A stretch of DNA of 39,957 nt from a virus (Duplodnaviria > Caudoviricetes): IMG/VR virus record IMGVR_UViG_3300020374_000009, positions 1-39,957 of that record, one strand, 5' to 3'. Position numbers and translations under genes: made by a program. Within the stretch, counting starts at the first letter, position 1; each line of letters begins with the position of its first letter. The notes under the pieces were generated by a model. It was given only the letters and a program-made list of their open reading frames with translations. It was not told where the DNA came from and made no database searches. Below are positions 1-39,957 of the stretch, piece after piece.

Positions 1-799
1 CAGCGTCAGGGTTTGAGATAGTAGAACTAGCACTTGAAAATAGAACGCCAGGGCCAGGTAATGTATTACTTGTCTTTGTTCCTGTTGTAAATGCAAATAT
101 TCCACTCTCTGTGTAATCTACTGGGAAAATTGTTCCAGCAGCAGAAACACGATTCACAACCTTAACATCAACTGTACTTGATCCAACACCAGTAACGATA
201 CCTTGTAGATATCCGTCTGCTGTTGATGTTGTGCCTGGGCCAACGATTGTTCCACTAAGAGGTTGCGTAACACCCATACCAACACTTATATTTGTCACTA
301 CATGAGGAGTAACGTGAAGTTGTTGATCTGCAGCTCCATCAATATATGCAACTTTCATTCCATTTGCATATGCGCCTGGATTTCTTGCAGCTAATCGATA
401 TGTAGTAGCATCTTCATAATTGTTTTGATAATCTTGAAAAGATTTAATCTTAAGATTTGAAGTTGATCCGATACCAGTTGGATGTGTTGAAGGCATTCCT
501 CCAACGTTTGCGTTATTTAAAGATGCACCATCTGCTCTAACGACTCTTAATACACCACCATACTGTAGATAGTTTGATGCTGTGTACCAGTATTCGTATT
601 GTCTATCCGCAGTTATTGGTTTTCCAAATAGATCGATCATATCTTGCTCATTCTCAATAAGCAAAGGTTCTAATACAGGGCCTCTTTCAAATGGCCCTAC
701 TATTGCACCTGTCTGATCACTAATGGAGTCAATTCTACCAACCGTAAGGTCAACTTCCCTAACCTTAACGCCTGGAGATACTAAACCTATGCCAGCCAT
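1..799 (-). CDS. gp18: Tail sheath protein gp18 (5' part; runs off the left edge)
   Basis: Not in the ORF track. Manual translation from ATG 799: MAGIGLVSPGVKVREVDLTVGRIDSISDQTGAIVGPFERGPVLEPLLIENEQDMIDLFGKP...YWYTASNYLQYGGVLRVVRAD, matching the T4-type gp18 N-terminus (SPGVxVxEVD, G-x-F-x-x-GP, NYLQYG-x-x-LRVVR). GGAG RBS at 806-809; lies downstream of gp17. Confidence 0.95.
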   Translation of the reverse strand, partial: MAGIGLVSPGVKVREVDLTVGRIDSISDQTGAIVGPFERGPVLEPLLIENEQDMIDLFGKPITADRQYEYWYTASNYLQYGGVLRVVRADGASLNNANVGGMPSTHPTGIGSTSNLKIKSFQDYQNNYEDATTYRLAARNPGAYANGMKVAYIDGAADQQLHVTPHVVTNISVGMGVTQPLSGTIVGPGTTSTADGYLQGIVTGVGSSTVDVKVVNRVSAAGTIFPVDYTESGIFAFTTGTKTSNTLPGPGVLFSSASSTISNPDA

Positions 800-835
800 G
801 TTTTTCTCCGAAATTCCACGTTGTTTTACTAAATT

Positions 836-843
836 TATTTATA
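836..843 (-). promoter_or_regulatory. T4-type late promoter TATAAATA upstream of gp18
   Basis: Plus-strand tatttata at 836-843 is a perfect gp55 consensus on the minus strand, intergenic, about 37 nt before the gp18 ATG. Confidence 0.85.
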
Positions 844-882
844 ACTTATGACCTCTTCAAATGGGGAAACATGACGTGAACT

Positions 883-1107
883 CTACCAATCAGGATAAAT
901 GTCTATTAAATCTTTCTTTTTTCTATTCTGAGAAACTCTTTTAATCGAACATCCTTTACACTCATAAGCATATGCAGATGGCACATTTCCTCTATCCTTT
1001 CTTGTTTTATAAAAATCGTTAATCAATTCTTTTGTTTGTCCACATATTTTACATTTTCTTTGTTCAAAAAGTAAATGTTCTAATCCAAACTGATCTTCAA
1101 GTTCCAC
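883..1107 (-). CDS. Small putative zinc-ribbon protein (CxxC...CxxC), about 74 aa
   Basis: CKIC and CKGC pairs. Start re-assigned to GTG 1107, which overlaps the upstream TAG and has GGAG at 1117-1120; the longer 1236 start overlaps the neighbour by 130 nt. Confidence 0.75.
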   Translation of the reverse strand: MELEDQFGLEHLLFEQRKCKICGQTKELINDFYKTRKDRGNVPSAYAYECKGCSIKRVSQNRKKKDLIDIYPDW

Positions 1108-1379
1108 TAGAACCATCTCCAAGGTAACATTGAATAACCTACCATATTTAACAATGGTTCCATTACTAATGCGATTAATGTAAATGTTAAGACATCTATA
1201 AAAAGTCGTTGTCTTGGTGAAAACTTTGACTTCCACTTTATAACTTTCTCTCCTACCTTCTCACAACGTCTCAATAATCCTGTCTTCTTTAGAATTAGTG
1301 TTGCCCACCACTGTGGATCTACTAAGTTTCCCAAGGTCTCTATTGTAAATTTACAATATGATTTTATAAGTTTAATCAC
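1107..1379 (-). CDS. Hypothetical membrane protein, 90 aa
   Basis: GTGA overlap with the upstream stop; hydrophobic C-terminal segment LFIDVLTFTLIALVMEPLL. Confidence 0.65.
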   Translation of the reverse strand: MIKLIKSYCKFTIETLGNLVDPQWWATLILKKTGLLRRCEKVGEKVIKWKSKFSPRQRLFIDVLTFTLIALVMEPLLNMVGYSMLPWRWF

Positions 1380-1549
1380 TCTTCTATTTCAAAAAACCAT
1401 TTAATAGACTTAATATAATCAAATGTACAACCTATATCTTTATCACAGTTGACATCATACTTTCTATCACACAAAAACTTTCTTAGTTCATAAACAGAAT
1501 CAAATCTTCCTTTATGTCTTTCTTGTTCATCATATAAATGATACTTCAT
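1376..1549 (-). CDS. Hypothetical protein, 57 aa (MKYHLYDEQERH...)
   Basis: ATGA overlap with the upstream stop at 1546-1549; fills the operon without a gap. Confidence 0.7.
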   Translation of the reverse strand: MKYHLYDEQERHKGRFDSVYELRKFLCDRKYDVNCDKDIGCTFDYIKSIKWFFEIEE

Positions 1550-1809
1550 ATGCCGTTCCAAAAAGTATCTATTTGAGTAGTTTGTATATTTCTTGATACA
1601 ATATACAATCCTACATTACATAGAAACCAAAATGCATTAGTTATCCATGCTTGTCTCCAACAGTATTTTCTATTTGTCTGCACAATGTAAAGACTTCTCT
1701 CATTGTCTTTAACAAATTGTTCAAGAACAAATGAAATTGCACATCCTATTGCAAAAACATAAAACATTAAGTTTAAAAAACCTGCCGAAGCTAATAAAAA
1801 TGAAATCAT
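1546..1809 (-). CDS. Hypothetical two-helix membrane protein, 87 aa
   Basis: ATGA overlap with the gp17 stop; two hydrophobic stretches (FLNLMFYVFAIGCAISFVL; WITNAFWFLCNVGLYIV). Confidence 0.7.
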   Translation of the reverse strand: MISFLLASAGFLNLMFYVFAIGCAISFVLEQFVKDNERSLYIVQTNRKYCWRQAWITNAFWFLCNVGLYIVSRNIQTTQIDTFWNGI

Positions 1810-3452
1810 TTGTACTCCCACATGTAAGATCTATCACCATATTCATCATTATACCATCTCTCTCCACTCTCGTCAACAAAACTTTCTTCTTCTGTGCCGT
1901 CAACAATGAAACCAAATGGTGACATATCTTGTTCAATCTGATCTCTTTGATCTTCATATATTCTTTTTCTAATATCTTGATCTGTAAGTTCTTTAAAATA
2001 ATCTTGTTGAACTAGCCATGCATATATCACCAAGCACATTGCAAGGTCATCGTTACAACCTTCTTCTGCTTCAAATGAATTATGTTTTTGAATAAAAGTT
2101 GTTAATTCTGATATAATATCATAATCATTGAATAGTATTTTCTCGTCTTCAATTAAAGTTTTTAAGTTTGAACATCCCACTTTCTTTACAGTCTTGGACA
2201 TCTTCACTCCAAGTTGAGTTTTTTTACCTGAGAATCCTTGTCCCACGATTTGACCAGCACGGCCTCTCATTGAACACATTAAGAGATTTTCATATTCTAG
2301 ATCATAATGTATGATACTTGCAACTTGATCCCCTATGTCATTTACCTCACATAAAATAAAAGCATTATTATAAGCCTTTCCAAGATCTACAATAATACTT
2401 GGAAATAACATTGGTTTTATTTCATTGTTTTTGTATTTACCAACCACTTTATGTGGGAAGGTAGTAATGTCTGTGATTACAAATGCAGAATAGTCAATAC
2501 CAACACCACGAGCAACGTCAACTGTAATTACATAATCATGATCTTTGATTGGGTCAAAATAGATATCTAATCCACGATTACTTTGTCGTGGGTCATCATA
2601 TACTAATGTTCTTAATTTTGAAGAACTAATTAGAGTATCAACAGATCCTAAGAACTCACATTCAAACTCAACACGAAACTGTTGTTCAGATGTGTTTGCA
2701 ATTGTTTGTTCTTTCCATACCGCATCTCTGCCTGGCACTTCTGACCAGTGAACTTCCGTGGGTATATACTCATTTTTATTTCTTTCGGCATCATGCCACA
2801 TACGGTAGAAATGATTCATACCATGTGGTGTAGAAACTATGATGACTTTTGTTTTTTGTCCAGAAGATATAGTAGGATAAACAGAGGCAAAGAATTGATC
2901 AGCAATGTGATTCGGGATAAAAGCGAACTCGTCAAGAAAGATGACATTATAGGAGCCGCCTCGGACAGCAGATGCAGATGTAGATGCAGCGAGAATTTTT
3001 GATCCATTTTCTAACTCCAGAGAACCTTTGTTCCAAACAAGCACACCTTGTTGCATCCACTTCGGTAAATTTTCATATGCAAGTTGCAATCTACCAAGTA
3101 GATCTCTTGCGGTTGATGCTTTGTTTGCAAGTATTGCTATATTTACATTATCATTAAAAACTGCATAATGCAACAAATAAGATACCACAGTCGTAGACTT
3201 TCCAGTCTGACGAGGCATCTTACAGATATTAAATCTGTCGTTATGAAAATTGTTGATTAACTTTTCTTGAAATGGATATAGATTAAAATTAACTAGACCC
3301 TCATCAAGAGAAACAATCTTTATATAATTTTTTGCGAAATATACAGGATTTTCCTTACACTTGATGAACTCCTCAATATTTTCTTGAGTAAATTCAACTT
3401 TTACATTCGCTTTCTTTAGATTGGGATTACCAAGATATACAGTATCAGACAT
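1806..3452 (-). CDS. gp17: Terminase large subunit gp17
   Basis: N-terminal YLGNPNLKKA, Walker A MPRQTGKST, Walker B VIFLDEFAF, coupling motif IIVSTPHG, RNase H-like nuclease residues VDVARG and DDLAMC. Confidence 0.98.
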   Translation of the reverse strand: MSDTVYLGNPNLKKANVKVEFTQENIEEFIKCKENPVYFAKNYIKIVSLDEGLVNFNLYPFQEKLINNFHNDRFNICKMPRQTGKSTTVVSYLLHYAVFNDNVNIAILANKASTARDLLGRLQLAYENLPKWMQQGVLVWNKGSLELENGSKILAASTSASAVRGGSYNVIFLDEFAFIPNHIADQFFASVYPTISSGQKTKVIIVSTPHGMNHFYRMWHDAERNKNEYIPTEVHWSEVPGRDAVWKEQTIANTSEQQFRVEFECEFLGSVDTLISSSKLRTLVYDDPRQSNRGLDIYFDPIKDHDYVITVDVARGVGIDYSAFVITDITTFPHKVVGKYKNNEIKPMLFPSIIVDLGKAYNNAFILCEVNDIGDQVASIIHYDLEYENLLMCSMRGRAGQIVGQGFSGKKTQLGVKMSKTVKKVGCSNLKTLIEDEKILFNDYDIISELTTFIQKHNSFEAEEGCNDDLAMCLVIYAWLVQQDYFKELTDQDIRKRIYEDQRDQIEQDMSPFGFIVDGTEEESFVDESGERWYNDEYGDRSYMWEYK

Positions 3453-3467: not shown

Positions 3468-3623
3468 TTATATTTTTTTAGGTGGTTCAATCACCTTGGG
3501 TGATTGGCCAGGTTCTTGTGTGTATGGTCTATTGCCAGGTTGACTCTTAATATCTTTTTTTACTTTTTTAAGAGTGTCACCGATGTGTGTAAGACCATCT
3601 TTAAATTGTTTAAAAGTTTTCAT
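3468..3623 (-). CDS. Small basic protein (51 aa) with a T4 internal-protein-like N-terminus
   Basis: Not in the ORF track. TAATG overlap with the 1003-aa gene; MKTFKQFKDGLTHIGDTLKKVKKDIKSQPGNRPYTQEPGQSPKVIEPPKKI*; fills the gap before gp17. Confidence 0.75.
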   Translation of the reverse strand: MKTFKQFKDGLTHIGDTLKKVKKDIKSQPGNRPYTQEPGQSPKVIEPPKKI

Positions 3624-6600
3624 TAGCACTTCCACCTTCTTCTTGCTTGTCTCAAACGACTGTTTGGATCTTTTGCAGCCTTTGGAAACTTCTTCATTTG
3701 GCCTGCACTTCTCGCACAGTAACTCTTTCTTCTGTTTGCAGCCTTAGATCCTTTTTTGACTTTACCAGTCACCGCAGTTTTAAGTTTTGAGCCAGGGTTT
3801 CTGCGACGATATGCAGCAACACCTTTTGCAGTCATACCAGCGCCACTTTTTGTAGGTCTTTTGTGTCCAGACTTGACACTCATTCCTTTCATGTCATCTT
3901 CATTTACAAGTATCTTATCTCCAACTCTTAGATCATTCTCTACAAACCAACCACGATTAGTTTCAATCGCATATCTTATCTCACCATCAGGATAAACAGG
4001 AACAGAACTATGTGGTTTTAATTCTTTGATACTATCAATTGTCCCATCTTCCTTAATAAATGCAATGTCAAGAGGTATCAAAGTATTTTTCATATGGAAA
4101 GAATGTTTATCATTACTTTCAAATTCAAATAACATTCCTCTGTCAGTATCTAAACTTTCACGAAACATGAGACCTAATTTGAATCTTGCTTCATCAAGAG
4201 GTATTTCAACTTGAAGTGGTAAATCAACATACTCCTCTTGTGAAAAAGATTGAGTAGAATCTGGACTTGCGCCTCTCATAGTATTTCTTTTGTTATCTTT
4301 TTTGGGAATTTGTTTGGTTAATTTATCAGTAGCTGTCTTAATACCCTCAAATCTTTTATGAGCTTTATCAACTATTTTCTTAGTTCTTGGGTTTCCTAGA
4401 TCTGGGCCTATAACATTTGAGGGTTTAGATCGAGAATATGCATGTCCTATCTTTATCGCAGAATCAACTGAGGCTTTTTTAATATAACTACCTAAAGTTG
4501 CTGGCGACAACTCGGAAATATACTCCTCACTTCTTGTAATCTTTTCATCCTTCTCATTACTTGCAAGGTTTTTCTTAAGTTGTTTCTTTGATATCTTTGG
4601 GCCACCGATTGGATCACCATACTCATCTCTCTTAACTCCTTCACCAACCATCACAGTAGGTTCGCCTGGTTCAAACATCTTAGGTAAAAATGACAAAACC
4701 TTTGCATCAGGATAAATCTTTTGAACTTGTTTCTCTACTTCTTGACGAGTTGGTCTAGACACAGATGGAACAAACATCTGAACCATATATGTATTTCCTC
4801 TCCAAGTTAATACAACTTTATATGTATGACCATTTTTAACTAGACGAACTTTCTCTTCATTTGTTTCTTCGGGTGGTAAGAAATTAACCTTCTCTTGGTC
4901 TTTCTTAGCCATTACTCTTTTTGCTGCCTTACCAGCGTCGTACTTACCTACATACTCCGATTTAGATTTTTTTTTTAACTTCTCTCTTTTGAGAAAAGCA
5001 ACTCCTTCTGTAACCTTCTTATCTGATGTCATTGGTAATTTAGGTTCTTTAGCTTTTATTTTTGCTAACTTATCCTTTGCAATCTTTCCTTCAGGCCCTA
5101 TGGTTTTTGCCATATTTTGAAGTTTACTTGTCTTAGTCTGTTTAACAATAAAAGAAAGAGGATTCATCTCTTGAAGTTCTACTTCTTCCTTAGTAGCTTT
5201 CTTTTTCACACAATTATTATATCTCTTACCAAACATCATCTTAGTTCCTTTCTTCTCATATCCTTTCCAACACTTCTGACCTTCTTTGATTTCAATCATA
5301 CCAGCAGCTTCAAGTGCTGAAACTTGCATTGGTGAGAATCCTTCTTTCTTTGTACTGTTACCCCAGTTTGCAGCACCAACCTTACGACACTTGACTAAAG
5401 CACCAGATGCATATGCACTTGGCCATACAGAATATCTTGATTTAACTTTAGTATAGCAAGCATCTTTTGTGCCACTACCCTTACCTTTCTTATCTTTTGC
5501 CTCATTTACAAAAGATTCTTTTGTATCTTTTTTCTTTTGTTCACGATAAGATTTTTCATTTGCTTTTTTCAATCTTTTATCAGCTGCTTTCTTTTGCTCA
5601 GGAGTCTCCATATGACTAAGATCCGCATATCCTTTGAATCCTTCGACCACTTTATTTCGATTAAAATAATTCTCTTTCATTTTCTTTTTGGGATCTGTAG
5701 AAACGTTTGTTGGTTTTGCTGCACCTGACTTCTGTGGTTGATTTGGATCAGCAGCTCTCTTTCTTCTTGCAGCACTATCTCTTTCCTTATCACTCATAGA
5801 TGATCTCTTAGATGATGAGGTGCATTTAGGAGTTGACTTCTGGCCAGGCTGTCTAGCACATGGTTTACCATCATACTTACCACCAACTTGAACCCAACCT
5901 TTTACTTTGCGTCCAGACTTAGTAGTACCACTTGATTTACCAAACCAAGCACGAAGACCTTCTTCTTCTATACTATATTTATCAAATTCATCTTCTTTCT
6001 TCATTGCCAACTTAGTTGCAGTCGCATACATCACAGACTTTGCATCATCTCCATAACGTTTTTTAAATCCTGATTTATTCTTCTTCATTCCTTTGACTAT
6101 ATCTTCTCTCTTATCCATCTCTTTCTCAGTCATTTTTCCTTCTCTCATATCTTTCATCTTCTGTCTTATAACCCAATCATCTGGAATAGTAAGATGTTTT
6201 GCTTTGAATTGATTATGTAAAAGAGTTGGTGACATGTTATTGCGTTTTGATATACTTTGCATCAACTTATCAATTGAAACATAAGAGGTATCAGTCAACT
6301 TAATCAAACCATCTTCTAACTCAGAAACAGCATTAGCTATGAGTCCTACATTTGATGTTTCGTAAACTACCGATTCCCCGACCCCGCCCCCGCCTGAGCC
6401 ATTACCACCACCATTACCACCAGAGCCACCGTTACCATTTCCAGAACCATTCCCACCGTTCCCATTTCCGTTAGAACTTCCGTTACCATTGCCGCTACCA
6501 TCATCTCCATCACTATCAGAACGATTATCTCTCGCAAGATATCCACGAGATCCTATTCGATACCCACGAGGTATCTTCTTACACTTCTTATCAGTGAAAC

Positions 6601-6634
6601 AGTAATATTTGCCTGGCGGACACTTTTTAGCCAT
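3623..6634 (-). CDS. 1003-aa modular Lys/Arg-rich protein (putative internal-head polyprotein) containing a DUF192-like domain
   Basis: Long ORF behind a perfect late promoter; alternating basic modules and short acidic xxE linkers; aa ~805-909 (GLMFRESL...GMLFEF...FHMKNTLIPLDIAFI...YAIETNRG...LRVGDKI) match the DUF192 signature. Confidence 0.9.
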   Translation of the reverse strand: MAKKCPPGKYYCFTDKKCKKIPRGYRIGSRGYLARDNRSDSDGDDGSGNGNGSSNGNGNGGNGSGNGNGGSGGNGGGNGSGGGGVGESVVYETSNVGLIANAVSELEDGLIKLTDTSYVSIDKLMQSISKRNNMSPTLLHNQFKAKHLTIPDDWVIRQKMKDMREGKMTEKEMDKREDIVKGMKKNKSGFKKRYGDDAKSVMYATATKLAMKKEDEFDKYSIEEEGLRAWFGKSSGTTKSGRKVKGWVQVGGKYDGKPCARQPGQKSTPKCTSSSKRSSMSDKERDSAARRKRAADPNQPQKSGAAKPTNVSTDPKKKMKENYFNRNKVVEGFKGYADLSHMETPEQKKAADKRLKKANEKSYREQKKKDTKESFVNEAKDKKGKGSGTKDACYTKVKSRYSVWPSAYASGALVKCRKVGAANWGNSTKKEGFSPMQVSALEAAGMIEIKEGQKCWKGYEKKGTKMMFGKRYNNCVKKKATKEEVELQEMNPLSFIVKQTKTSKLQNMAKTIGPEGKIAKDKLAKIKAKEPKLPMTSDKKVTEGVAFLKREKLKKKSKSEYVGKYDAGKAAKRVMAKKDQEKVNFLPPEETNEEKVRLVKNGHTYKVVLTWRGNTYMVQMFVPSVSRPTRQEVEKQVQKIYPDAKVLSFLPKMFEPGEPTVMVGEGVKRDEYGDPIGGPKISKKQLKKNLASNEKDEKITRSEEYISELSPATLGSYIKKASVDSAIKIGHAYSRSKPSNVIGPDLGNPRTKKIVDKAHKRFEGIKTATDKLTKQIPKKDNKRNTMRGASPDSTQSFSQEEYVDLPLQVEIPLDEARFKLGLMFRESLDTDRGMLFEFESNDKHSFHMKNTLIPLDIAFIKEDGTIDSIKELKPHSSVPVYPDGEIRYAIETNRGWFVENDLRVGDKILVNEDDMKGMSVKSGHKRPTKSGAGMTAKGVAAYRRRNPGSKLKTAVTGKVKKGSKAANRRKSYCARSAGQMKKFPKAAKDPNSRLRQARRRWKC
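6380..6508 (-). repeat. Gly/Asn/Ser low-complexity tract (GNGNG repeats)
   Basis: aa ~43-85 of the 1003-aa ORF: GDDGSGNGNGSSNGNGNGGNGSGNGNGGSGGNGGGNGSGGGGV. Confidence 0.9.
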
Positions 6635-6655
6635 AAACGAATACGATCTACGATA

Positions 6656-6663
6656 TATTTATA
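6656..6663 (-). promoter_or_regulatory. Late promoter TATAAATA for the 1003-aa gene
   Basis: Perfect consensus overlapping the TAA of the fibre gene, 22 nt upstream of ATG 6634. Confidence 0.8.
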
Positions 6664-9930: not shown

Positions 9931-9937
9931 AACTCTC

Positions 9938-10981: not shown

Positions 10982-10997
10982 ATCAAAGCTTTCTAAC

Positions 10998-13228: not shown

Positions 13229-13237
13229 TCTTCACCT

Positions 13238-13603: not shown

Positions 13604-13607
13604 TTTT

Positions 13608-32100: not shown

Positions 32101-35100
32101 TTAATACCAATTGTACCTTTTACATTAACTTTAATTGGTGGATAGTTAAATACATGTTCTCCAGAACCAATTGATGTTAATCCAACAAATTGTTTACTTA
32201 AATAATTTGCATTTGATAATGTAGTACCAATTCCAGCAGATGCTAATCTAAATTGACTATCATTTATTTTTAAAACATAATAATCTTGCTCAGTATCTAA
32301 TCCCCCAATTGTAATTCCGATTCCTGTATGTGAATATTGAATAATTTCTCCATCTTCAAATCCATGATTTTCATATTCAATAAAATCTGAATATGTATTA
32401 ATGCCAGTTGTAGGAACTAATCTTCTTTTATTTTCATAACCCTCGCCTGGATTATCAATAATAATATCACCCAAAATAAGTTTTTGATTGACACTTTGGA
32501 ATCTCTGTGATCCATCAGCAAAACCTGTAATGTTGATAAGATTTGATTGCGTTAAAGCGTCATTCTTAGTATTAGCTAATTTAATTGTTGTTGCATTTGT
32601 TCTCGATACAAAATACACTGCTTCATCAACAAGTCTTTGATCTGGGTTATTTTGAATAAGAGTTGTAGTAATACCAGCACTTGCGATACCAATCGAACCA
32701 GTATTGAATGTTTTATAAATTACAGGTTCCCCATCTCTGAATTTATGGAAAGTTGAGAATCCAATCGTATCATTTGCGATGTTAATTGCATTACCTGTTG
32801 AAGACGCATCAAAATCAACGAAATGATCAATTTGTCTTAATCTTGGTCTTAGAATTGCATTCTTACCATTTCCTCCAGTAATTTCAATAACTGGTGGTTC
32901 TACATAGTCAAAACCAGAATCTTGAATATCAATTCTTTCAATTTGACCTTTTACAACAGCTGTTGCACTTACACCAGCACCAGCTAAACTCTCAACACTA
33001 ACTTTTGGTGGATTAATAACATCATATCCAGATCCACCTTCCAAAACATCAATTGATTCAACGCCGCCAAAGAAAATAACATCACCAGATTTGTAATTTG
33101 TTATTTCTGTTCCATTTACCAATATTCCAGTTGTGCCTGGTATAGTTTCACGTTGACTACCATCAAATGTAGGATTTAATGAAACTCTTTTTAATAACTT
33201 TTGATGTTCTAATTTCTTATTTGCTAAATCTGGAACAGATATCTTAAAAGTTCCATCACCTGTAGCATCTACAAAGTTCTCATTAATTAAATCTGGTAAT
33301 GAGTTTGCAAGACGTATATTATTAGAGTCGATACGACTTACATAATAATTTTTACCATTAATTAATTGACCAAGATATCCACTGGTTACATTAAATGTAA
33401 CAACTTCTCCAGAATAGAACCCATGATCCGCTGCACCCTCTGTTACCTGTATCAACTGTATAACGTCGCCGCCAGTGGCGCCAGTCCACGTTACAGAACG
33501 GTCTGGTGCAACTATAGGTTCATTACCTAAACTTGGGATTGATGGTGAAGTAATGTAAGCACTCCCAGTTTTATCATCATAAACGTTTTGAACATCAACC
33601 GTATATTTGGTAATGTTATCATGAATAGGACTATTACCTCTTTTTACTTTTCTTCGTATAAATGCAATTGTAAACTCATTAATGCCAGGCAAATCACCCA
33701 ATATAAATGTAGAACTACTAATTGTACTTAAAACTCTACCTAAACCAATCACATTTGAATTAGCGTCTAAAATTTCAACTGAATCCTCTTCTAGTAATTT
33801 GTGATCTGATTCTGTAACAATATTGAAACTACTTGATGATATTTTGGTAACTGTCTTTGGTGTTTGTTTTACAGTTGTATTATAAACCCAAGATCCAAAG
33901 TTAAAATCTTCAGAACTCTTATTAACACCAAATGTTCCAACACGAACTCTATCTCCCTTATTAAAATAGTAAGTTTCTTCTGGAATTGGAAAATCTTTAA
34001 GAACACCAGTGATTAAAACTTCAATTTTATTTGATCCACTTGCAAAAGAATATCCATATGCAACATTATTATATCTAACATCATCTCCAATACTTAAAGT
34101 GTCTACCATTGTAGACAAACCTACAAATTGATTAGTTGTTTTATTTGTATATGTTACAACTCCAGCAACACTTGCTGATGGTAATGATAAGGAACCACTT
34201 GTAGGGAATCCAACTGTAGTATCAACAGTAATTACAGTTGCGCCAATTGATACTGGATCAGTGATTCGAGTTCTGCCTGGAACTTTAAAATGTCCCTCAA
34301 TTGAATCTTTTGATACACTTATTTGATAATAATGTTCTCCACCATATACAAAATCTTTAACATCAGATATCGCACCAGAAGCACCAAGGATATTTTTATC
34401 ATTTTCGTCTAAATCTTGAAAAAGTGTAGATCCTTCTAAGTTTCTAGGATCTCCAGTGATTGATTTAACCACAAAATCCTGTGCAAAACCATAATCTGCA
34501 TCAGATGGTTTGATTAAAAAATCAGATGGTCTAATAATATTGACTTCTTCACCATATAATGCTCGAAATAAAATTTTATATGACTCATCGGTTCCCTTTG
34601 TTTTATAAAAATCTTTAATTTGTCGAATAAACTTAACTTGATCTAAATCACTATCTAATTTTCTACTCTCAAACCCACTTGCAAAGGTTGTTTTAAGTTT
34701 ACTGAAAAATTCACGAATAAAAAGATTTGATAAGTTATAAACTTTACTTCCACCAGTATGTGCAGCACCAATACTTGTATTGAATGATAATAGATCAGGC
34801 CTAGTTGGTTGATCCATATCATCAACACCACTAAACCCTCTTACACATCCTGTAAAGGAAGTAGATCCAATACCAGTGTATGTGATAATCTCATCATCTA
34901 TTTTTAGTAATCCATACTTATTTGGATAACCTTTTGTAGTATCAACATAAATTATATCCGAATATGACTCAGTGTTTGTTGATAATCCTGTATATTCAGT
35001 AAGTGCAGCGCCAACATATGTTTGTAACTTAGTATATCTGTCAAGATTCTCTGCGATGTTTATAGATGCACCTTGATATTCTTGGGAGATATAATATTGT

Positions 35101-35204
35101 TTCATAAAATCCACAAAAAGTGGACTTTCTGACTGCACAAACTCAGGTAACTGATTTTCAATTACCTGATTTATTTCGACTCTTTGTATGGAGGTATCTA
35201 TCAT
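23133..35204 (-). CDS. gp7: Giant baseplate wedge initiator gp7 (4023 aa) with many accessory repeats
   Basis: NQLPEFVQSESPLFVDFMKQYY; IKDFYKTKGTDESYKILFRALYG; IQDSEYYQNFSYSL...WKDPVNSLGHVVGF; lies between gp6 and gp8 with TAATG coupling to gp6. Confidence 0.88.
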   Translation of the reverse strand: MIDTSIQRVEINQVIENQLPEFVQSESPLFVDFMKQYYISQEYQGASINIAENLDRYTKLQTYVGAALTEYTGLSTNTESYSDIIYVDTTKGYPNKYGLLKIDDEIITYTGIGSTSFTGCVRGFSGVDDMDQPTRPDLLSFNTSIGAAHTGGSKVYNLSNLFIREFFSKLKTTFASGFESRKLDSDLDQVKFIRQIKDFYKTKGTDESYKILFRALYGEEVNIIRPSDFLIKPSDADYGFAQDFVVKSITGDPRNLEGSTLFQDLDENDKNILGASGAISDVKDFVYGGEHYYQISVSKDSIEGHFKVPGRTRITDPVSIGATVITVDTTVGFPTSGSLSLPSASVAGVVTYTNKTTNQFVGLSTMVDTLSIGDDVRYNNVAYGYSFASGSNKIEVLITGVLKDFPIPEETYYFNKGDRVRVGTFGVNKSSEDFNFGSWVYNTTVKQTPKTVTKISSSSFNIVTESDHKLLEEDSVEILDANSNVIGLGRVLSTISSSTFILGDLPGINEFTIAFIRRKVKRGNSPIHDNITKYTVDVQNVYDDKTGSAYITSPSIPSLGNEPIVAPDRSVTWTGATGGDVIQLIQVTEGAADHGFYSGEVVTFNVTSGYLGQLINGKNYYVSRIDSNNIRLANSLPDLINENFVDATGDGTFKISVPDLANKKLEHQKLLKRVSLNPTFDGSQRETIPGTTGILVNGTEITNYKSGDVIFFGGVESIDVLEGGSGYDVINPPKVSVESLAGAGVSATAVVKGQIERIDIQDSGFDYVEPPVIEITGGNGKNAILRPRLRQIDHFVDFDASSTGNAINIANDTIGFSTFHKFRDGEPVIYKTFNTGSIGIASAGITTTLIQNNPDQRLVDEAVYFVSRTNATTIKLANTKNDALTQSNLINITGFADGSQRFQSVNQKLILGDIIIDNPGEGYENKRRLVPTTGINTYSDFIEYENHGFEDGEIIQYSHTGIGITIGGLDTEQDYYVLKINDSQFRLASAGIGTTLSNANYLSKQFVGLTSIGSGEHVFNYPPIKVNVKGTIGINTSHPENYHAIVNPIVRGRITSINVERPGLGYGSPTTFNFSIPPLVRVSSGSSSEYKAIVSNGKIQSVIVTRSGDEYTSTPDLTILGDGVGAKVVSSISGGRVSEVSIKNGGVGYTTSLVGVQEVIPGSGVVFLPKIKSWAVNNVKRYEDIFYGDDGFLTRGDNDEGIKFTSFYVPRELRKILKQKNSDGTIDYTSNDLNILNNAEQVSLNHSPIIGWAYDGNPIYGPYGYDRKDGGTVRIMRSGYSLKTTRENGPPINTFPLGFFIEDYEYLANGDLDENNGRYCVTPDYPKGTYAYFSTINPNENETSGTFKNFRSPVFPYLIGANYAAKPDDWNFVETNNQNIDLNTLSLTRNTNPYKLDAAGSEYEGIFDSRKKVLQEIEVNYASPGKINQYEILNAGSGYQVNEKLLINNLDSGNGLSAKISVIDGKEIVSIASTIVKIENIVFSYDNRTGNVIGLSSQPHGLVIGDVINVSGLSTDTLRSLDGQHRIGFSTATFDLTVGVGTTGVTGIVTSIDLAGDFSPRNINSNDILGISTERMLVLNVDNVNGKVRVQREFDGVLGTAHSAGATVTALNRSISFNVGINTNIITNINIPRYFNPVETVSVGSTAGVGVGNTIVYTFGVSGRRSGRPSGITSTFVRTQQIFLEDHGFKTGEKLLYSNNGGTSLRVYNGLGTFVLPNNSPVFAINLGQNFLGISTNALGIGSTGSVTGIGSTAYQLFFSSQGTGVKHSFTPQKEEITGFVEKIVGTVVCKENHNLLQNDSVSISLTPGISTSYNVQYDDLTKRTVINPRSFGASNVNTDTSVITLNNHGFKTGDKVIYKSSSPASPLVNNDVYFVVRIDDNSFKLSETNFKSKTLVPSTISITSAGSGHTISLVNPPITVTKGYKVGFAVSDTSLTQVVSGKKTKIFDLDFFRDPNFTNPYFNNEEDSGFQVVGVGTVGVTTTARVDLSLTENTPDELFYRLTPVNLNINADSKRNPITDTDVNNFSTLSVRESEYNGTYAITGIGSTTFTFNIPKQPEKDGYTKNEAVILKYETASKTASGPINRIQFVSKGRGYRSIPVVTSIASTQGVGGIVRFNSTDIGNLKRYTTKNIGFDYSADKTIQPSVQLPQILRLDRLSTIANIGISSGGKNYLEPPRIIVIDRVTGQVNSEIVTRSELQGTSVSEVRILRNTNSLYDTNPKIVATNNNNGIKVKNLSFTSGTNVVALTLEGTYDSTTYPFTIGDKLYVENIGIGSTGSGYNSSDYNYDPFVITGVNTNPGGGNATVSYKLDSSVTSPGIFSGPSSSGQAIPFENIASFNIDIKPNQFSVGETVSTGDKEGTVVAWNENNKYLKVLSNDTFSVDELINGSSSKSIAIIEQTNKFDSTYEIDSNSEVRSGFRRETGKLNTELQKIQDSEYYQNFSYSLGSPVQYETWKDPVNSLGHVVGFKNFADVNIVSVASTDDKNRSNARVGVSSNVAVVVADLVSENESLHNTYDFDLVTENSKNIGGLFASDEINFSNKIITDYIESRTNRAISIDSVSSEFNDLPRATAFSDVFDFNINDIDGIKFYAMLFDTRFSGEKEIIQVNLLHDGSTGYMMKFGRVETAIDLGDFDFSVSGVIGNLRFLPAKSKFNNYALRLFAIETFKNTQTGISTLSLGTGYDIISTSAGIGSTDPSPVQVVGFGSTAITTSKLLVQTQELGGDQRTQLNELVVLNDSEEVYLLDYAQMTNDNLSITDSPSVGLGTFGADVRSGITSVYFTPVTGVGVTMRVHQVAIGGTATGIGSTLVSTTEVLTTTTNIASTGTPQPTRISGINSNTYSAFDALIELHDTTNDRYAVTQVTAIHDSITPYFTEFGYMDNFSDNPTSTSGIGTVGVGYSSASDGDIELRLTPPANTAITAKVFQYNFNETGTGGIGFVTFTDSRLKSVEGSYTGTENDIKFSFNMKHTGDSIFNKTFDSEDAAVVDVTNNTFIVNNHFFQTGEELSYDPIGSGTTMSIGIAATAISGIGVTSKMPPTVFAVKIAENKFKVARTAAEALQTVPKVLDLTAVGVGTTQAFTSTNLNSKVLVTLDNNIQSPVIQSPINVKLSFDVVSETDFITLTGISSFFSGDVIKVNDEFMKIDTVGIGSTNQILVRRGQLNSAIVAHSANDTVTKFLGNYQIVKDTINFTDAPKGSKGPAGLTTTSTFVGRVFTHTGIPGGTQETYTNNFVFDTVEDQFTGIATNFILKSGGSNVTGFATNTGVILLNEIFQNPNDDYNIVETTGITSVSFTGVGVTNNYDVNVSSVPRGGIIVSVGETTNFGYQSLVSAGGTAIVSAAGTVESVSIGNSGSGYRVGLQTNILVKAVTSSGIVTVGKANVSAGLVTSVTITNGGGSGFSSATPPDLEFDKPINYENMKLVGSATGIGASVSVRVGSASSIISFQITNFGYNYKIDDVLKIEEGGQAGILTDANKVVKDFELTVLDTFNDSFAGFTFGELEKLNSFEDLFDGNRRSFNLTKTIGAAETLITLRAAKGSPIRVEDNCLIFLNDILQVPFESYVFNGGSQVTFSEAPKSDDKVRIYYYRGSEHDVIEVDILETVKTGDKLTINKYPDIGLDDVFQQDPRTITGITTSDAVTTNTYIDAGITTVRTLERPVTWKKQISDVVVNNIGIGKDRVELEPGIRPTAYIIKSVSAGSSEMFVDTSVPLFNQVDDIAEVKQSVLILDRTTKTGVAATALVDGTGSISRIDISNGGSGFTRPPHVSIGVTAGIGTVHVGVAGTIGNATATATISGLGTVNSITVRNAGAGYTNTNPPLVMIEPESVTQDTLTSIKYDGDFGHIVGIATTSVAGVGTALQLDLFIPKDSVLRDTSVVGTAITVSGIGSGHYFTASETNIGSGLTSYENAIGTSPVGVGTSFIDNIYKVHSAKTIQGPVLGIGATTLRRVTVSVSSIEGLTVPVGVTTVINPLYYGKFSWGRLHDFIKEGTGAFTAITDDGITGIKTGPVIIRTRDLKESFT

Positions 35205-37258
35205 TAATATCCGCCAGAACCAGAACTATATGATCCACCACTACTAGTAGAAGTAGTGTTTGAACTTGATGATGTCATCGTGTTATTGTATGTGCCAGTT
35301 GACGAAGAACTAGTTGTTGACGTTGATGCAGCAGTTGATGGTAACACTGAATCAACAGTTGTAACTGCTGAATTTGAATTTCGAGTGTAGGTTGGTGTAT
35401 AATAACTATGAACATGAACAAAACGAGATCCAGAAGTATTTTCACCAGAAGCTATTAAGTCTTGAACCATATTAATTGTTGTATTTGACATATCAAATTT
35501 TACATATAAGTCTCTTAAACCAACAATATCATTTGAATGAGGGATTGCTTGAATTTCAATCACATTATTTGCAATGACTGTAGAAAGTATGTTCACAGTA
35601 TCTATAAGAACTTCTCCATGCATATAATCAACTGTCCCTGCATTTTTCTTAATTACAACTGGAGCTCCACCCTCCGTATATGTAAAGAAGAATATTCGAC
35701 CTTTATCCTTATCAATAACTTCATCTGCAAGATAAACAGTTCCAACAACTCCTTGCATTGTAAAACCAGTCGAAACAACGTTATAAGATTTCTCTTGAAC
35801 ATGGAACATGTTACCAAAACATACTTCATATTGAGCAAACTTACCAATTTCTGATATTAAATTTCTTCTTATTAAGACTCTAGTGATATTTGATGTAATT
35901 GATGAGTCAACACTATCAATAAGACTCACCGCCTTACTATATTTAAATCTGCCACCAAATTTATTAATATCAATTGAACGAGAATATTGAGTTAATGCAT
36001 TAGAAACACTTGTCTTTAAGTTTTCTGAGTCATCATTCAAATTAGGATTATAATACGCTGATGTTTGTAACTCAACATATAAGTACTTAAGATCGATAAA
36101 CTCTGGCACAATTCCAGCAACTGCGTAACTTTTTAATTTTCTAATTAAATCTCTTTTTGTTTGATCTGAAAGAAAATCACCATTTCGAGGTTTAACTGAA
36201 ATGAATACCTTTCCATAACGAGGTGGAGTCATTTCTTCACCACCATAAGCTGTCACAGACTCAACATTCGGGTAAATATAACCTAAAACTGATTCATAAT
36301 CTGAAGATGTCACTGCACGGTACTGAGAAGAGTAAATTCGAGGTGCAAAATACTTAATTGACGTTATGGATTCAATCTCATCACCGTCTCTTGACTTTTC
36401 ATCAGTCGAAACAAGTGATATAAGTCCAGAATTTATCGCACCACCGTCTTGATTTGTAATATTTCCTACAAAACTGAACTCAGAAGCACCATTTCCATCT
36501 TTTCCTTCAGTTACAATGTAAGAAACTGTAACAACGTTGTTATTTGATAACTTTTTACCAATTACATTGTCACCAAAAATCAATTCATACCTTTCATCTT
36601 CAATTTCTTGTAATAAGTAAGAAGATGAAGTTGATGTAATTCCAATAATGTTATCAATTTGTTTATATGTGACCGAAGATGTTGAAGATGAAGACGATTT
36701 AACCTTAACTTGAATGGTTGATGTATCAATAAACGAATTATCTAGAATATATCTCTGATTAAACAAGGAAGTATTAACAGTAAACTCTTGTGATACAAAA
36801 TTACCTTCATAAATCTCAATATTATTAAATTCAGCAACTCCATTTACAACCGCAACTGTAATATTCTCTGGAATACAGAATATGTAATTTGTATTTGTAC
36901 CAGAACCGTTACAAATGATACCAGAATTTAATGTAAGAGTTGAAGTCTCTGTTAGACCATCTACAATAAATGATACTCTTGCTCTTGCAGATCTACGAGA
37001 TCTTGGAACGTAACCAATATTTCTTGCCAATGCAACAACATTCTCTCGAAGTGTAGCGGAATCGAGAAAACACTCATTTGCTGCCATATTGGTATTATAG
37101 GCAGTTGTGTATGTATTATATGCTAATGCGTCAATAATTATCGAAAGGTTAGACCCTTCAAAGTCATAATCAGTGAAATTTGTATTCGCCTTCAGATAAT
37201 CTCTGATGGAGACTTTGATTTGATCAAAATCTAAATTAACGTATTGACCGAAAGCCAT
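35204..37258 (-). CDS. gp6: Baseplate wedge subunit gp6
   Basis: LDFDQIK...FTDYDFEGSNLS; FLDSATLRENVVALARNIGYVPRS; QYRAVTSSDYE; PPRYGKVFISVKP. Confidence 0.96.
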   Translation of the reverse strand: MAFGQYVNLDFDQIKVSIRDYLKANTNFTDYDFEGSNLSIIIDALAYNTYTTAYNTNMAANECFLDSATLRENVVALARNIGYVPRSRRSARARVSFIVDGLTETSTLTLNSGIICNGSGTNTNYIFCIPENITVAVVNGVAEFNNIEIYEGNFVSQEFTVNTSLFNQRYILDNSFIDTSTIQVKVKSSSSSTSSVTYKQIDNIIGITSTSSSYLLQEIEDERYELIFGDNVIGKKLSNNNVVTVSYIVTEGKDGNGASEFSFVGNITNQDGGAINSGLISLVSTDEKSRDGDEIESITSIKYFAPRIYSSQYRAVTSSDYESVLGYIYPNVESVTAYGGEEMTPPRYGKVFISVKPRNGDFLSDQTKRDLIRKLKSYAVAGIVPEFIDLKYLYVELQTSAYYNPNLNDDSENLKTSVSNALTQYSRSIDINKFGGRFKYSKAVSLIDSVDSSITSNITRVLIRRNLISEIGKFAQYEVCFGNMFHVQEKSYNVVSTGFTMQGVVGTVYLADEVIDKDKGRIFFFTYTEGGAPVVIKKNAGTVDYMHGEVLIDTVNILSTVIANNVIEIQAIPHSNDIVGLRDLYVKFDMSNTTINMVQDLIASGENTSGSRFVHVHSYYTPTYTRNSNSAVTTVDSVLPSTAASTSTTSSSSTGTYNNTMTSSSSNTTSTSSGGSYSSGSGGY

Positions 37259-37650
37259 TATACTCTAGCTGGGAATAGGAGAACGTCTACTTCTTGTGTT
37301 GGAGAGGGAATACCAACGATATCGTATTGAACCGTACAATCCATTTCGTTTGTATCTGGTGCAACTGATACAGTTACCTCAATATTGTCAATTCTTGGTT
37401 CATAATTGAGTAAAGATGTTCTAATTTCATCTTGAATTCTAATCTCACTCAAATTTGTGTTCAAATCGAACAAAGATTCATTAATAACTGATCCAAAATT
37501 AGGTTCAAATGGTTTTTCACCAAGAATTGTAAAAATTATGTTCTTAACAGACCTTTTAATAGCGTCTTCATCACGAATTGCAATCACATCATTCGTCACA
37601 GGGTGACGTTTAAACGATAAATTGATATCTTTGAATGCTCTAGAAGCCAC
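37258..37650 (-). CDS. gp25: Baseplate wedge subunit gp25
   Basis: FKDINLSFKRHPVTND; AIKRSVKNII; GEKPFEPNFGS; NYEPRI; GTG start. Confidence 0.95.
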   Translation of the reverse strand: MASRAFKDINLSFKRHPVTNDVIAIRDEDAIKRSVKNIIFTILGEKPFEPNFGSVINESLFDLNTNLSEIRIQDEIRTSLLNYEPRIDNIEVTVSVAPDTNEMDCTVQYDIVGIPSPTQEVDVLLFPARV

Positions 37651-37693: not shown

Positions 37694-38020
37694 TTATCTT
37701 TTTACGACACGAATTCGATATTTTTCAGAATCTAAAGCGTTAATAATGTATTTAGCACAAATTCTGGGGTCTTTTTCGCCGCAAGTGAAGAAATCTGCGT
37801 TCAAACGACCCAATTCAGGCCAAGTATGACAAGAAACATGACTTTCTGCTAATGCAAAAAGAGACGTAACACCACATGGACTGAATTTATGTGTATATTC
37901 ATTTAATATTGTCATCTCCGACTTCAAAATAGCACGAGTGAAGATGTCACGAAGGAAATTTGGACTATTTAAGTCCTCAAAGTACCCATCGTAGACATCT
38001 AGTATCAGATGCTCACTCAT
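37694..38020 (-). CDS. speD: S-adenosylmethionine decarboxylase-family pyruvoyl proenzyme
   Basis: HLILDVYD, HKFSPCGVT, self-cleavage motif LAE|SHVSCHTWPE, DFFTCG; start placed at ATG 38020, just after the upstream TGA. Confidence 0.92.
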   Translation of the reverse strand: MSEHLILDVYDGYFEDLNSPNFLRDIFTRAILKSEMTILNEYTHKFSPCGVTSLFALAESHVSCHTWPELGRLNADFFTCGEKDPRICAKYIINALDSEKYRIRVVKR

Positions 38021-38021
38021 T

Positions 38022-38786
38022 TCATCCCAATTCTGGTGCATCATCGATTGTAATATTCATTCCTTCAGTGTAATATCCTTCTGTAATGAAGTCATCGGTG
38101 ATTAAATCAGTGCTTCCATAACTTACTTGGACATCAGATGCTCTTTCTTTCGATGTTTTCCAGAAATAATTGTCTTCTGAACCCAATCCATCACGATCAT
38201 GACCATTCTCCACCTGATAATACACGGTTGATACCTTAAAATCGGGAATCTTAGGTGTCTCAGGAGTGATACTGTTATCATAGATACGCATTCTGTTGTT
38301 AGGATACAGTGCAAACTGACCATTATCCAATTCTAAGAGGTTATGAGACTTATGTTCCGCTGGTTGTTCACTGGTAGAGTAGTCGATGGCGTCTACATCA
38401 GAGTGATAATTATCTAAAGTGCAAATATATGTACCTGTCTGATTACCAAAGTCTCTTGTATAGACCTCATAGTGCATTGAACCGATGAATTGTTTCTGTA
38501 CTGCAACAACGCCATAGTCCATACAGTTCCAAAACTGTAGATTATGTAACGTCATATCTGGATCGGGTAGCTCAGGAGAGGAGAGAAAAGCGCTTATCGG
38601 TAACTTATCAAACATTGCAGCATACTCTGGTAAATACGTTTCAAAGTAAAACGCACGGCCAGGAATACTCTTTGCAGAAACCCATACTCCTTTCACAAAT
38701 TCACCATGACCACTCTTATGATCAGTCAAGTACTCTTTTCTCACCCATACCTCATAAGAAGGTAGATTGGTAATCAGTGTACTCAT
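38022..38786 (-). CDS. Conserved hypothetical marine T4-like phage protein (254 aa)
   Basis: Long ORF with ATGA coupling; well-folded composition (WVRKEYL, EHKSHNLLELDNGQFALYPNNR); no function recognised. Confidence 0.85.
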   Translation of the reverse strand: MSTLITNLPSYEVWVRKEYLTDHKSGHGEFVKGVWVSAKSIPGRAFYFETYLPEYAAMFDKLPISAFLSSPELPDPDMTLHNLQFWNCMDYGVVAVQKQFIGSMHYEVYTRDFGNQTGTYICTLDNYHSDVDAIDYSTSEQPAEHKSHNLLELDNGQFALYPNNRMRIYDNSITPETPKIPDFKVSTVYYQVENGHDRDGLGSEDNYFWKTSKERASDVQVSYGSTDLITDDFITEGYYTEGMNITIDDAPELG

Positions 38787-38923
38787 TTACCCTGACCCCG
38801 ATAAGCTTTCTTCTTTGCATTTCGACTGGTTGCAGACAACTTAGTTCTTGCTGACTGTCCTTGTCTTGTCTTCTTGGGACGATGTTCAATCGTGGGTGTG
38901 CCTGGATTAAAACGAACTGCCAT
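38783..38923 (-). CDS. Small very basic protein, 46 aa
   Basis: Not in the track. MAVRFNPGTPTIEHRPKKTRQGQSARTKLSATSRNAKKKAYRGQGK*; TAATG at start, ATGA at end, GGAGG upstream. Confidence 0.8.
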   Translation of the reverse strand: MAVRFNPGTPTIEHRPKKTRQGQSARTKLSATSRNAKKKAYRGQGK

Positions 38924-39066
38924 TACTTTGTCCTCCGATCACGATTTAAAGGAGATGCAAAATAATCTCGATTTGCAATGTATAATACTACAAGAGTGAG
39001 TAGAATACCAAAGAAACCAGCAATGAGTATTGGTGACTCTGGAATTTCATAAAAAGGAACTTCCAT
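38923..39066 (-). CDS. Small single-pass membrane protein, 47 aa
   Basis: Not in the track. MEVPFYEIPESPILIAGFFGILLTLVVLYIANRDYFASPLNRDRRTK*; TAATG overlaps at both ends. Confidence 0.75.
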   Translation of the reverse strand: MEVPFYEIPESPILIAGFFGILLTLVVLYIANRDYFASPLNRDRRTK

Positions 39067-39254
39067 TACTTACCTTCCTCCATCATATCAATAACTTCAA
39101 CTTCATCTGGATCGATTGCACCTTCAACACCCATGTCAAAGTTCTTGACTAATATCTGAAATGCATCGTATTTACCTGATTCACTCAACAAACCCTTGGA
39201 GAGTTCGCGCCCGTTATGAATCAATTTATATCTTCTAGGGAGACCTTGCGCCAT
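39066..39254 (-). CDS. Hypothetical protein, 62 aa
   Basis: GGAG RBS upstream; coupled to the downstream ORF. Confidence 0.75.
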   Translation of the reverse strand: MAQGLPRRYKLIHNGRELSKGLLSESGKYDAFQILVKNFDMGVEGAIDPDEVEVIDMMEEGK

Positions 39255-39262
39255 AATAACTC

Positions 39263-39337
39263 CTATGAATGTGGATTATAAAACTGTAGGAATGCAAAGA
39301 CTCCTACGATGAGAACAATAAAAACTATTCCGTACAT
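39263..39337 (-). CDS. Putative 24-aa hydrophobic micropeptide
   Basis: Not in the track. MYGIVFIVLIVGVFAFLQFYNPHS*; TAATG overlap with the upstream gene; fills the gap. Confidence 0.55.
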   Translation of the reverse strand: MYGIVFIVLIVGVFAFLQFYNPHS

Positions 39338-39957
39338 TATATTACCCTCGTCTTCTCATGACCCACTCGTATTCGTGGATCGCACCATGTCACGATGCCC
39401 TTCTTCTTTGCATCTAAACAGAATGATACATCTTCTCCACACATATCCTGTACCTTACCACTATCAAAGACTTGCATCTTCGGAGCAAACCAAGGATATT
39501 CAAGATTCTCGAATACACCATTCTTAATCAATACCCAACCAAAACCAGTATAATCAACAGTGAAAGGTTTTCTCTTCTTAGTAATCGACTCCACAGTCTC
39601 ATGATTCATCACTCCGCCATTCTTTGCAAAGTCTTCTTCGTTCAACCAGTGTGCAACTGATGTCGTATGTCCATCTTCTGTGGCATACCAACCTGCTGTA
39701 ATCTCTTTCTCAGGCCCTTCTTCTGGTATTGCTAAGTCAATAAGTTGCCAGAACTTCTCAGTACTGAAAACAATATCACTATCAATCCATAACTGATAAT
39801 CATACTTTAACTTACCATCCCAAGGAACCTGTTTGGGGCCTCTCAATACATTCGCACCTAATACCTTACAACGTGCAAAGTTAACCATAGATGAATAATC
39901 TTGAGATATCTGTATTCCATTACCATTCTGTACTAAGTCAAAACATAACTGTACAAA
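39337..39957 (-). CDS. GT-A-fold glycosyltransferase-like protein (5'-truncated by the window edge)
   Basis: Frame is open to the window end (FVQLCFDLVQNGNGIQISQDYSSMVNFARC...); DxD motif YQLWIDSDIVF; VDYTGFGWVLIK and GEDVSFC are typical of GT2-like enzymes. Confidence 0.75.
   Translation of the reverse strand, partial: FVQLCFDLVQNGNGIQISQDYSSMVNFARCKVLGANVLRGPKQVPWDGKLKYDYQLWIDSDIVFSTEKFWQLIDLAIPEEGPEKEITAGWYATEDGHTTSVAHWLNEEDFAKNGGVMNHETVESITKKRKPFTVDYTGFGWVLIKNGVFENLEYPWFAPKMQVFDSGKVQDMCGEDVSFCLDAKKKGIVTWCDPRIRVGHEKTRVI

Follow-up and report, generated by a model that had tools for sequence, protein, structure and literature searches.

Modification of short words in phage DNA is known from several systems close to the subject of this study, namely a stretch of 39,957 nucleotides of viral DNA (IMG/VR virus record IMGVR_UViG_3300020374_000009; the whole stretch is called the window below), the restriction sites that survive in it and a gene of the DUF4338/DruA family carried by its relatives. 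The Mom protein of phage Mu transfers a glycyl group from Gly-tRNA to adenine in double-stranded DNA, and TmcA acetylates the N4 of cytosine in tRNA (PMC13219725). Phage CAjan modifies GGC, placing dPreQ0 at GA and GGC (PMC7544227). In marine Myoviridae-like viral metagenome-assembled genomes (V-MAGs), sequencing by the single-molecule real-time (SMRT) method gave N4-methylcytosine (m4C) at RGCY, CCNGG, GGWCC and GGHCC, and VGCY in V-MAG V32 (PMC8919816). The same sites (CCWGG, GGWCC) are at stake here, and words of the GCY type appear in the SMRT calls; the differences are that those motifs were ascribed to S-adenosylmethionine-dependent methyltransferases or left unmatched, and that the accessible part of that report does not describe survival of sites depending on their flanks. 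DruA-like structures are listed for six Synechococcus phages in a Phold preprint.

In the window and its closest relatives, several restriction-type sites are kept only where they overlap the word GCY (RGC on the other strand). We consider it probable that a DUF4338/DruA protein with a GNAT fold modifies the G:C pair in this word, likely at the N4 of cytosine, and that the phage has purged the sites left unshielded. This protein, absent from the proposals of an earlier sequence-only reading of the window, is the best candidate that we found.

Flank-dependent survival of restriction sites

Exhaustive counting gave 46 CCWGG sites in the window, every one (46/46) flanked by G on one strand (preceded by G in 43 cases, followed by C in three), together with 24 GGSCC, no GGWCC, no CCSGG and one CCGG, in the context ACCGGC. 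The sequence-only reading had noticed by eye about 45 CCWGG, all of them G-flanked, Gly-Pro pairs written only as GGSCC with no GGWCC, a single CCGG read as CCGGC, and no avoidance of CCNNGG or GATC; the counts and the codon null confirm each of these observations, and its CCWGG coordinates agree with ours (20468 becoming 20469).

The null consisted of 300 synonymous-codon shuffles of 20 window ORFs (12,897 codons). Free CCWGG, that is, without the G flank, numbered 0 against 37.9±2.9 expected (null minimum 30), and G-flanked CCWGG 43 against 6.7. The total, 43 against 44.6, stayed at the null level, so that bare sites have been recoded, not lost. Likewise, GGWCC was absent against 24.6±2.4 expected (null minimum 18), GGSCC stood at 24 against 4.3, and CCGG at 1 against 19.3. 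GATC and CCNNGG, with 188 and 19 occurrences in the window, were not avoided in the ORFs (184 against 164.8 and 16 against 18.9). GCC/GGC as a whole was also near the null (251 against 245), and the rare GGC codon sits just where a Pro-Gly or Gly-Pro pair would form a bare site, which argues for selection and not drift.

Two further cores, which had escaped the sequence-only reading, define the word more closely. CTGCAG occurs twice in the window (15.4 expected), both times as CTGCAGC, and 14 of the 15 GCGC read GCGCC, the remaining one being AGCGCT. With these contexts the shielding word becomes GCY, wider than GCC. Another strongly depleted word of the window is CCTGC (8 against 46).

The window, with a GC content of 34.5%, comes from a marine cyanomyovirus of the T4-like kind, of which it represents the structural module; its genes lie on the minus strand. 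The best cultured matches of its terminase are the cyanomyoviruses P-TIM68, Bellamy and S-SM2 (75-77% nucleotide identity), and its gene order matches that of P-TIM68; terminase and gene order place it, from sequence and apart from the question of host, among the T4-like cyanomyoviruses (Kyanoviridae). Matching DNA comes from marine metagenomes, and RNA runs contain only small shares of the window. Its features are as follows.

1..39957, no strand: window-wide site signature from counts, CCWGG, CCGG, CTGCAG and GCGC kept only where they overlap GCY/RGC
2-799, minus strand: tail sheath-like ORF; the first 270 window bases are shared with the start of record G024
1806..3452, minus strand: terminase large subunit, used for phage placement and for the definition of the signature clade
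3623..37650, minus strand: T4-like structural module with neck, small terminase, fibre-like and baseplate ORFs (names from P-TIM68 synteny), in which the majority of the shielded codon pairs for Pro-Gly and Gly-Pro lie
37694..38044, minus strand: S-adenosylmethionine decarboxylase (Pfam, PF02675), not a modification gene
39337..39957, minus strand: 206-aa ORF open at its 5' end, no Pfam match; anchor for the upstream walk to L306, L324 and G014

Three of the 80 viral terminase loci compared, those with 91-93% identity, contained 48 CCWGG, none of them free, and no GGWCC, whereas in the remaining 77 loci 987 of 1,209 CCWGG were free and GGWCC numbered 623. The signature is common to a clade whose terminase identity is about 91% or higher. 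A clade-specific search pattern returned 32 loci, 24 of them without any free CCWGG; the other eight were two relatives with three free sites each, two intermediate loci (85%), two without the signature (82%) and two unrelated ones. The two relatives with three free CCWGG are L091 and L109, which, with L141, L486 and L536, form a set closely related to the window in which a number of CCWGG or GGWCC are free, perhaps in segments that are recombinant or were acquired recently. In the viral and metagenome contig scans, no clade record exceeded about 39 kb; L230 (239 kb, of which 12 kb were examined) and G015 (236 kb) lack the signature and were rejected as complete clade genomes.

Pooling 27 partly homologous clade loci with the window, 352/352 CCWGG and 34/34 CTGCAG were G-flanked, and 57/57 GCGC read GCGCY. 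A largely non-redundant clade scaffold of 116,939 bp (90 ORFs, two codon nulls) gave the same picture: CCWGG (94/94), CTGCAG (8/8), CCATGG (4/4) and GCGC (48/48) were all shielded. None was free, against 72.6/75.5 expected for CCWGG, 20.0/16.6 for CTGCAG and 10.6/10.7 for CCATGG; YGCGCR was absent against 9.2/6.2, and GGWCC against 59/51. A plain GpC shield is rejected because GCGC and CTGCAG contain GC and still require an additional flank, their internal GCA or GCG giving no protection. A shield of GCC/GGC only would leave GCTGCAG unexplained. RGCY and GGCC are rejected because the base 5' of GCC is unconstrained (C 34, T 22, A 14 and G 12 at the 82 sites with a shield on a single side). The GCY word rule is certain as an observation. 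The affected pair would be G-C*-Y / R-G*-C, the word counts being silent on which of its two bases is altered. The sequence-only reading had suggested that a modification, encoded elsewhere than in the window, left this footprint together with selection against bare sites, which remains the best reading; its word, GCC/GGC or GpC, gives way to GCY, which fits.

Some absences concern sites that GCY could not shield: YACGTR, GGTACC, GTGCAC and TTCGAA in the window, the clade scaffold and S-SSM7, GTATAC in the clade, and ATGCAT and CAATTG in S-SSM7. Another pattern was seen in L258, L291, L302, L354 and AG-345-O18, which have no GCGC or CCGG, many GGSCC/GGCC and free CCWGG, and which may have an RGCY-type shield.

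A DUF4338/DruA gene on the continuation of the window

The clade contigs were followed in both directions from the window. Upstream, the walk reached G014 (35.8 kb; CCWGG 24/24 shielded, GGWCC 0), in which the PF01555 gene that P-TIM68 and its relatives have before the helicase was not present. Downstream it led to L395, which extends from CobS to RegA, retains the whole signature and lacks the dam gene that precedes gp62 in P-TIM68; L395 contains an ORF of 373 aa matching DUF4338/DruA (PF14236), whose neighbours are clamp-loader, RegA, DoxX and DUF3310 ORFs. The DUF3310 ORF (PF11753, L395:10932-11177) lies three ORFs downstream. The link with the window is provided by G024, of which the first 270 bases correspond to window 270-1 at 96.7% identity before it continues outward; it has the signature (CCWGG 29/29, GGWCC 0) and an allele 97% identical to that of L395 (G024:23627-24745). 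Since G024 overlaps the start of the window, the DruA-like gene belongs to a near-identical sequence that continues the window, and lies outside the window itself.

The enzymes proposed in the sequence-only reading (C5/N4 methyltransferase, dpdA, queC) did not turn up: neither S-SSM7 nor the clade contigs that were searched gave a PF00145, PF01555, PF01702 or over-cutoff QueC match. Profile searches of 24 records gave no PF00145 and no PF01702, the latter profile being liable to miss a distant DpdA, and among five records QueC (PF06508) had one match below the cut-off, of 16.2 bits in S-SSM7 (folE and queD were not searched). No dam, C5 methyltransferase or DpdA-like gene was found along the clade contigs walked, and the complete genome of S-SSM7 has no PF01555, PF02086, PF00145 or PF01702 match and no credible ORF with [SDN]PP[YFW].

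Known cyanophage methyltransferases were rejected in turn. The PF01555 enzyme of P-TIM68 and P-SSM2 is flanked mostly by free CCWGG at its 80 loci and is missing from G014; the second P-TIM68 methyltransferase and its homologs in S-RIM12, S-CAM22 and Sf-CH1b belong to genomes without the shield; and the conserved 'dam' does not suit GCY because dam-type genomes avoid GGCC. P-TIM68 also has a small NPPF-motif methyltransferase-like ORF beside a possible nuclease ORF (L145:2382-3468); many marine myoviruses have this NPPF-motif ORF in their hypervariable region (P-TIM68, L339, L355 and others).

The 373-aa protein matches PF14236 with 49.5 bits (cut-off 27, E 4.3e-13) and PADLOC DruA with E 5.5e-7; PTQPFG, GGKLL and TTSLYG are among its conserved segments. 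Its homologs form 6,843 clusters at 90% identity, and the gene is present in 31 cultured-phage records, all of Synechococcus, Pelagibacter or marine viruses. These matches, in Pfam above the cut-off, and in PADLOC recall the DruA (DUF4338) of type I Druantia. There, druA stands in an operon with druB-E; here, the gene stands among the replication genes of a lytic phage. In type II Druantia, DruM is a cytosine methylase. If that holds, DruA may play such a self-marking role in type I.

A structure model built from 104 aligned sequences, drawn from 270 homologs among the matches listed, had a pLDDT of 90.3. A first model, for which 49 close homologs were used, was of low quality (pLDDT 62) and had already given GNAT matches. 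Among 48,161 chains, the top 50 structural matches of the good model were all GNAT-type or contained a GNAT domain (Z 8.2-9.8), so that the protein is predicted to have a GNAT core fold. Mu Mom (PDB 8bv8) ranked first, level with other GNATs (Z 9.8, rmsd 3.8, 172 residues aligned). The likeness lies in the predicted GNAT fold of a phage protein and in a putative anti-restriction mark at a short degenerate word. The differences are in length (about 200-240 residues for Mom, 373 aa here), in sequence (11% identity in the structural alignment) and in the target, which for Mom is adenine and here, if the gene causes the shield, would be GCY/RGC, a word without a fixed A; the mark would work like that of Mom on a different base.

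A 76.7% identical homolog in the same slot, ORF152 of S-SCSM2R, was named 'methylcarbamoylase mom'; its likeness to Mom in structure was noted, and an anti-restriction role was proposed for it (PMC12801897). In the accessible part of that paper adenine is assumed, no motif is given and the gene is called unseen in other cyanophages; in comparison, we found it in the 31 phage records mentioned above, and the genome word counts point to a G:C pair.

Carriers, dam-type phages and a second shield

The DruA-like gene and the cyanophage 'dam' are shown to be nearly mutually exclusive. PF02086 'dam' was detected in one of 12 carrier records (11 complete genomes and one 74-kb fragment) and in 7/7 non-carriers, from all of which the DruA-like gene was absent by profile search; PF01555 was found in none of the 12 carriers. 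The exception, S-SCSM2R, has its dam elsewhere in the genome. The slot adjacent to gp62 is occupied by the DruA-like gene in S-SCSM2R, S-SSM7, Sf-CH8 and S-SM2 and by dam in P-TIM68, the only phage for which the position of dam beside gp62 was established.

The cultured carrier S-SSM7 (host Synechococcus WH8109), whose allele is 68% identical, shows the G flank in counts over its whole genome (CCWGG 196/206, CTGCAG 27/27, CTCGAG 5/5, CCATGG 18/21), with GCGC shielded in 49/49 cases; it retains 150 GGWCC, and the first of its 10 free CCWGG lies at about 36,283. In DSL-LC02, the whole genome has CCGG G-flanked in 17/17 cases, no GGWCC and 101 GGSCC, but 191 free CCWGG. Other comparisons were mostly made on sequence sets of 40-60 kb, not whole genomes. 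In seven CCGG-depleted carriers the leftover CCGG were all G-flanked (42/42), two more carriers having none, while six CCGG-depleted dam-type genomes held one CCGG altogether. The observed/expected ratio of GGCC was 0.03-0.11 in seven dam-type genomes and above 0.11 in 13/14 carriers. The dam-type cyanophages (L147-L226, P-SSM2, P-TIM68, S-RIM12, S-CAM22, Sf-CH1b, G015) retain CCWGG and GGWCC but have lost nearly all CCGG/CCSGG and much of their GGCC; their 'dam' and PF01555 enzymes may have targets other than GATC. In S-SM2 (L465-467), 60 kb contain no CTAG.

Among 80 viral loci with the DruA-like gene, the rule of the window held in 52/60 at 86% identity or more. The signature also occurs outside the cyanophages, in G019 (L371-L374, L385-387), a marine T4-like fragment of 43 kb, not from a cyanophage, that shows every part of the signature of the window (CCWGG 15/15, CCGG 5/5, PstI 6/6, GGWCC 0) and whose record does not reach the gene region.

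The SAR11 myovirus HTVC008M (L462-464, L579-583) has two DUF4338 paralogs, at 86.1 and 99.5 kb. Over its whole genome, GCGC (59/59) and GCNGC (218/218) occur only before Y, and GATC (83/83, as GGATC), GANTC (43/43) and GTATAC (14/14) only after G. In 48 kb of Mosig (L584), which has one copy of the second paralog type, GCNGC (63/63) and GATC (6/6) are shielded and GANTC is not; as in HTVC008M, GTATAC is kept only after G. These two phages show GCY plus a second shield, together DCC and GCT, which equals GCY plus WCC. SMRT cytosine-type signals at DCC and GCT were reported for the marine V-MAG CM1_5m.V27 (PMC8919816 supplement), for which the only such genes listed are one restriction gene and two methyltransferases of the Dam-like kind, with no cytosine methyltransferase in the available gene listing (PMC8919816).

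Nature of the mark and rival explanations

The word counts make it very likely that some mark exists at GCY, and the gene comparison suggests that the DruA-like GNAT protein, through a presumed action on DNA, is its writer, which we regard as somewhat better than an even prospect. The protein would modify the G:C pair following G, as G-C*-Y. If so, the modified base would quite likely be cytosine, otherwise guanine; N4 acylation of cytosine may be envisaged by analogy with Mom (adenine N6) and TmcA (tRNA cytosine N4). The mark would block host restriction enzymes at overlapping CCWGG, GGNCC, CCGG, CTGCAG, CCATGG and GCGC, a mark on one strand probably being sufficient, and selection would have removed unshielded sites. 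Hosts would carry enzymes that we take to be of the EcoRII/ScrFI, AvaII/Sau96I, HpaII, PstI and HhaI types, and the enzymes of its hosts would determine which sites of a phage appear shielded. No report of the GCY word rule or of DruA activity, nor the term N4-acetylcytosine for phage DNA, was met in the literature searched, most subscription papers being outside it.

Several observations weigh against this interpretation. Alleles at most 84% identical show the rule of the window in 0/20 loci, where 205/265 CCWGG are free, so that the gene alone does not force the CCWGG rule, and the 52/60 loci that follow it are all of one clade, so that kinship confounds the association. Sf-CH8, S-SM2 and S-SRM01 carry the gene without a clear G-flank shield, and S-SSM7 has no GGSCC and no CCGG, though GCY should shield some. 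The common PF01555 enzyme is encoded in L339 and L351, two loci that resemble the clade on a small number of sites. Several non-carriers, too, have little YGCGCR (2-3 of 23-31), which makes GCGC weak evidence by itself. The idea of one paralog for one word is refuted by Mosig, which has the second type only and still shows GCNGC shielded in all 63 cases. As to structure, generic GNATs score as well as Mom (Z 8.8-9.6), about 15 others lying within 1 Z, and Foldseek with the good model gave no match at E<=0.001, Mom ranking 11th with E 0.016. Modification and base are both deduced from word counts and gene comparison. Finally, the clade genome is seen in fragments, and unseen regions could hide a methyltransferase.

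An unlikely alternative is a phage N4-cytosine methyltransferase with specificity relaxed from RGCY to GCY, encoded in the unseen part of the clade genome, with the DruA-like gene as a passenger. Marine Myoviridae-like V-MAGs do have m4C at RGCY, VGCY and YGCYGC together with M.Ssp6803II- or M.AvaVII-like genes (PMC8919816), M.Ssp6803II has a PF02086 domain and yet makes GGm4CC (PMC6105098), and the clade is known only as fragments. Yet the complete S-SSM7 has the same shield without PF01555, PF02086, PF00145 or a credible [SDN]PP[YFW] ORF, and the clade contigs have no such genes at the usual slots. It seems less probable again that GCY is marked during replication of the phage DNA by a methyltransferase or other enzyme of the host: an orphan GGm4CC enzyme is known in cyanobacteria (PMC6105098), but the free base 5' of GCC does not fit GGCC or RGCY enzymes, the shield recurs in Synechococcus and Pelagibacter phages that share the phage gene, and dam-type phages from the same host genera lack it.

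We give little credit to an explanation without modification, in which avoidance of several longer sites (WCCWGGW-type, AvaII GGWCC, FspI TGCGCA) mimics a flank rule. The absences of GGWCC, TGCGCA and YACGTR are each explicable by simple avoidance; on the other hand, one G flank rescues five cores (CCWGG, CCGG, CTGCAG, CCATGG and CTCGAG), and all non-G flank combinations are missing (the clade CCWGG being shielded in 94/94 cases), which would need many separate enzymes. A CAjan-like 7-deazaguanine at the G of RGC appears very improbable. It has in its favour that word counts are blind to the base of the pair that changed and that CAjan modifies GGC (PMC7544227). In CAjan, as presumed here, modification of a short word blocks overlapping restriction sites. 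The CAjan route needs DpdA and QueC-type genes, and these were undetected here (PF01702 in 0/24 records, with the reservation on distant DpdA given above, and no over-cutoff QueC in five); the GA and GGC rule, moreover, leaves out AGC, the other strand of GCT. Mutational decay, through C5-methylation at CCWGG, GGWCC and CCGG and deamination except where an overlap blocks the methylase, is the least credible explanation and is disfavoured by the product counts. In its favour are the low GCT (1387 against 1656-1912) and high GTT (4486 against 4178-4280) of the clade scaffold, obtained on that scaffold only with no non-carrier control. Against it, deamination products are not in excess (CTWGG 218 against 206-208, GGWCT 206 against 202-206, TCWGG 439 against 445-456), the total of CCWGG has been maintained through recoding with rare GGC codons, for which selection is required, and no PF00145 was found.

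If the DruA-like protein is indeed the writer, a GNAT marking a G:C pair in DNA would extend Mom-type chemistry beyond adenine, and a target word and a testable function would become available for this phage gene family and, by extension, for the DruA of Druantia defence. The cultured carriers S-SSM7, DSL-LC02 and HTVC008M make the link between gene and word directly testable. More tentatively, and with odds that we place below even, marine T4-like phages of cyanobacteria and SAR11 may carry a new base, an N4-acylated or aminoacylated cytosine at GCY or DCC/GCT, made by DUF4338 GNATs that replace methyltransferases; some marine 'm4C/m5C' calls might then be that base, and bacterial DruA might be the self-marker of type I Druantia. 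As a general approach, flank-dependent survival of restriction sites allows the modification word of a phage to be read from its sequence alone and reveals which restriction specificities press on marine phages.

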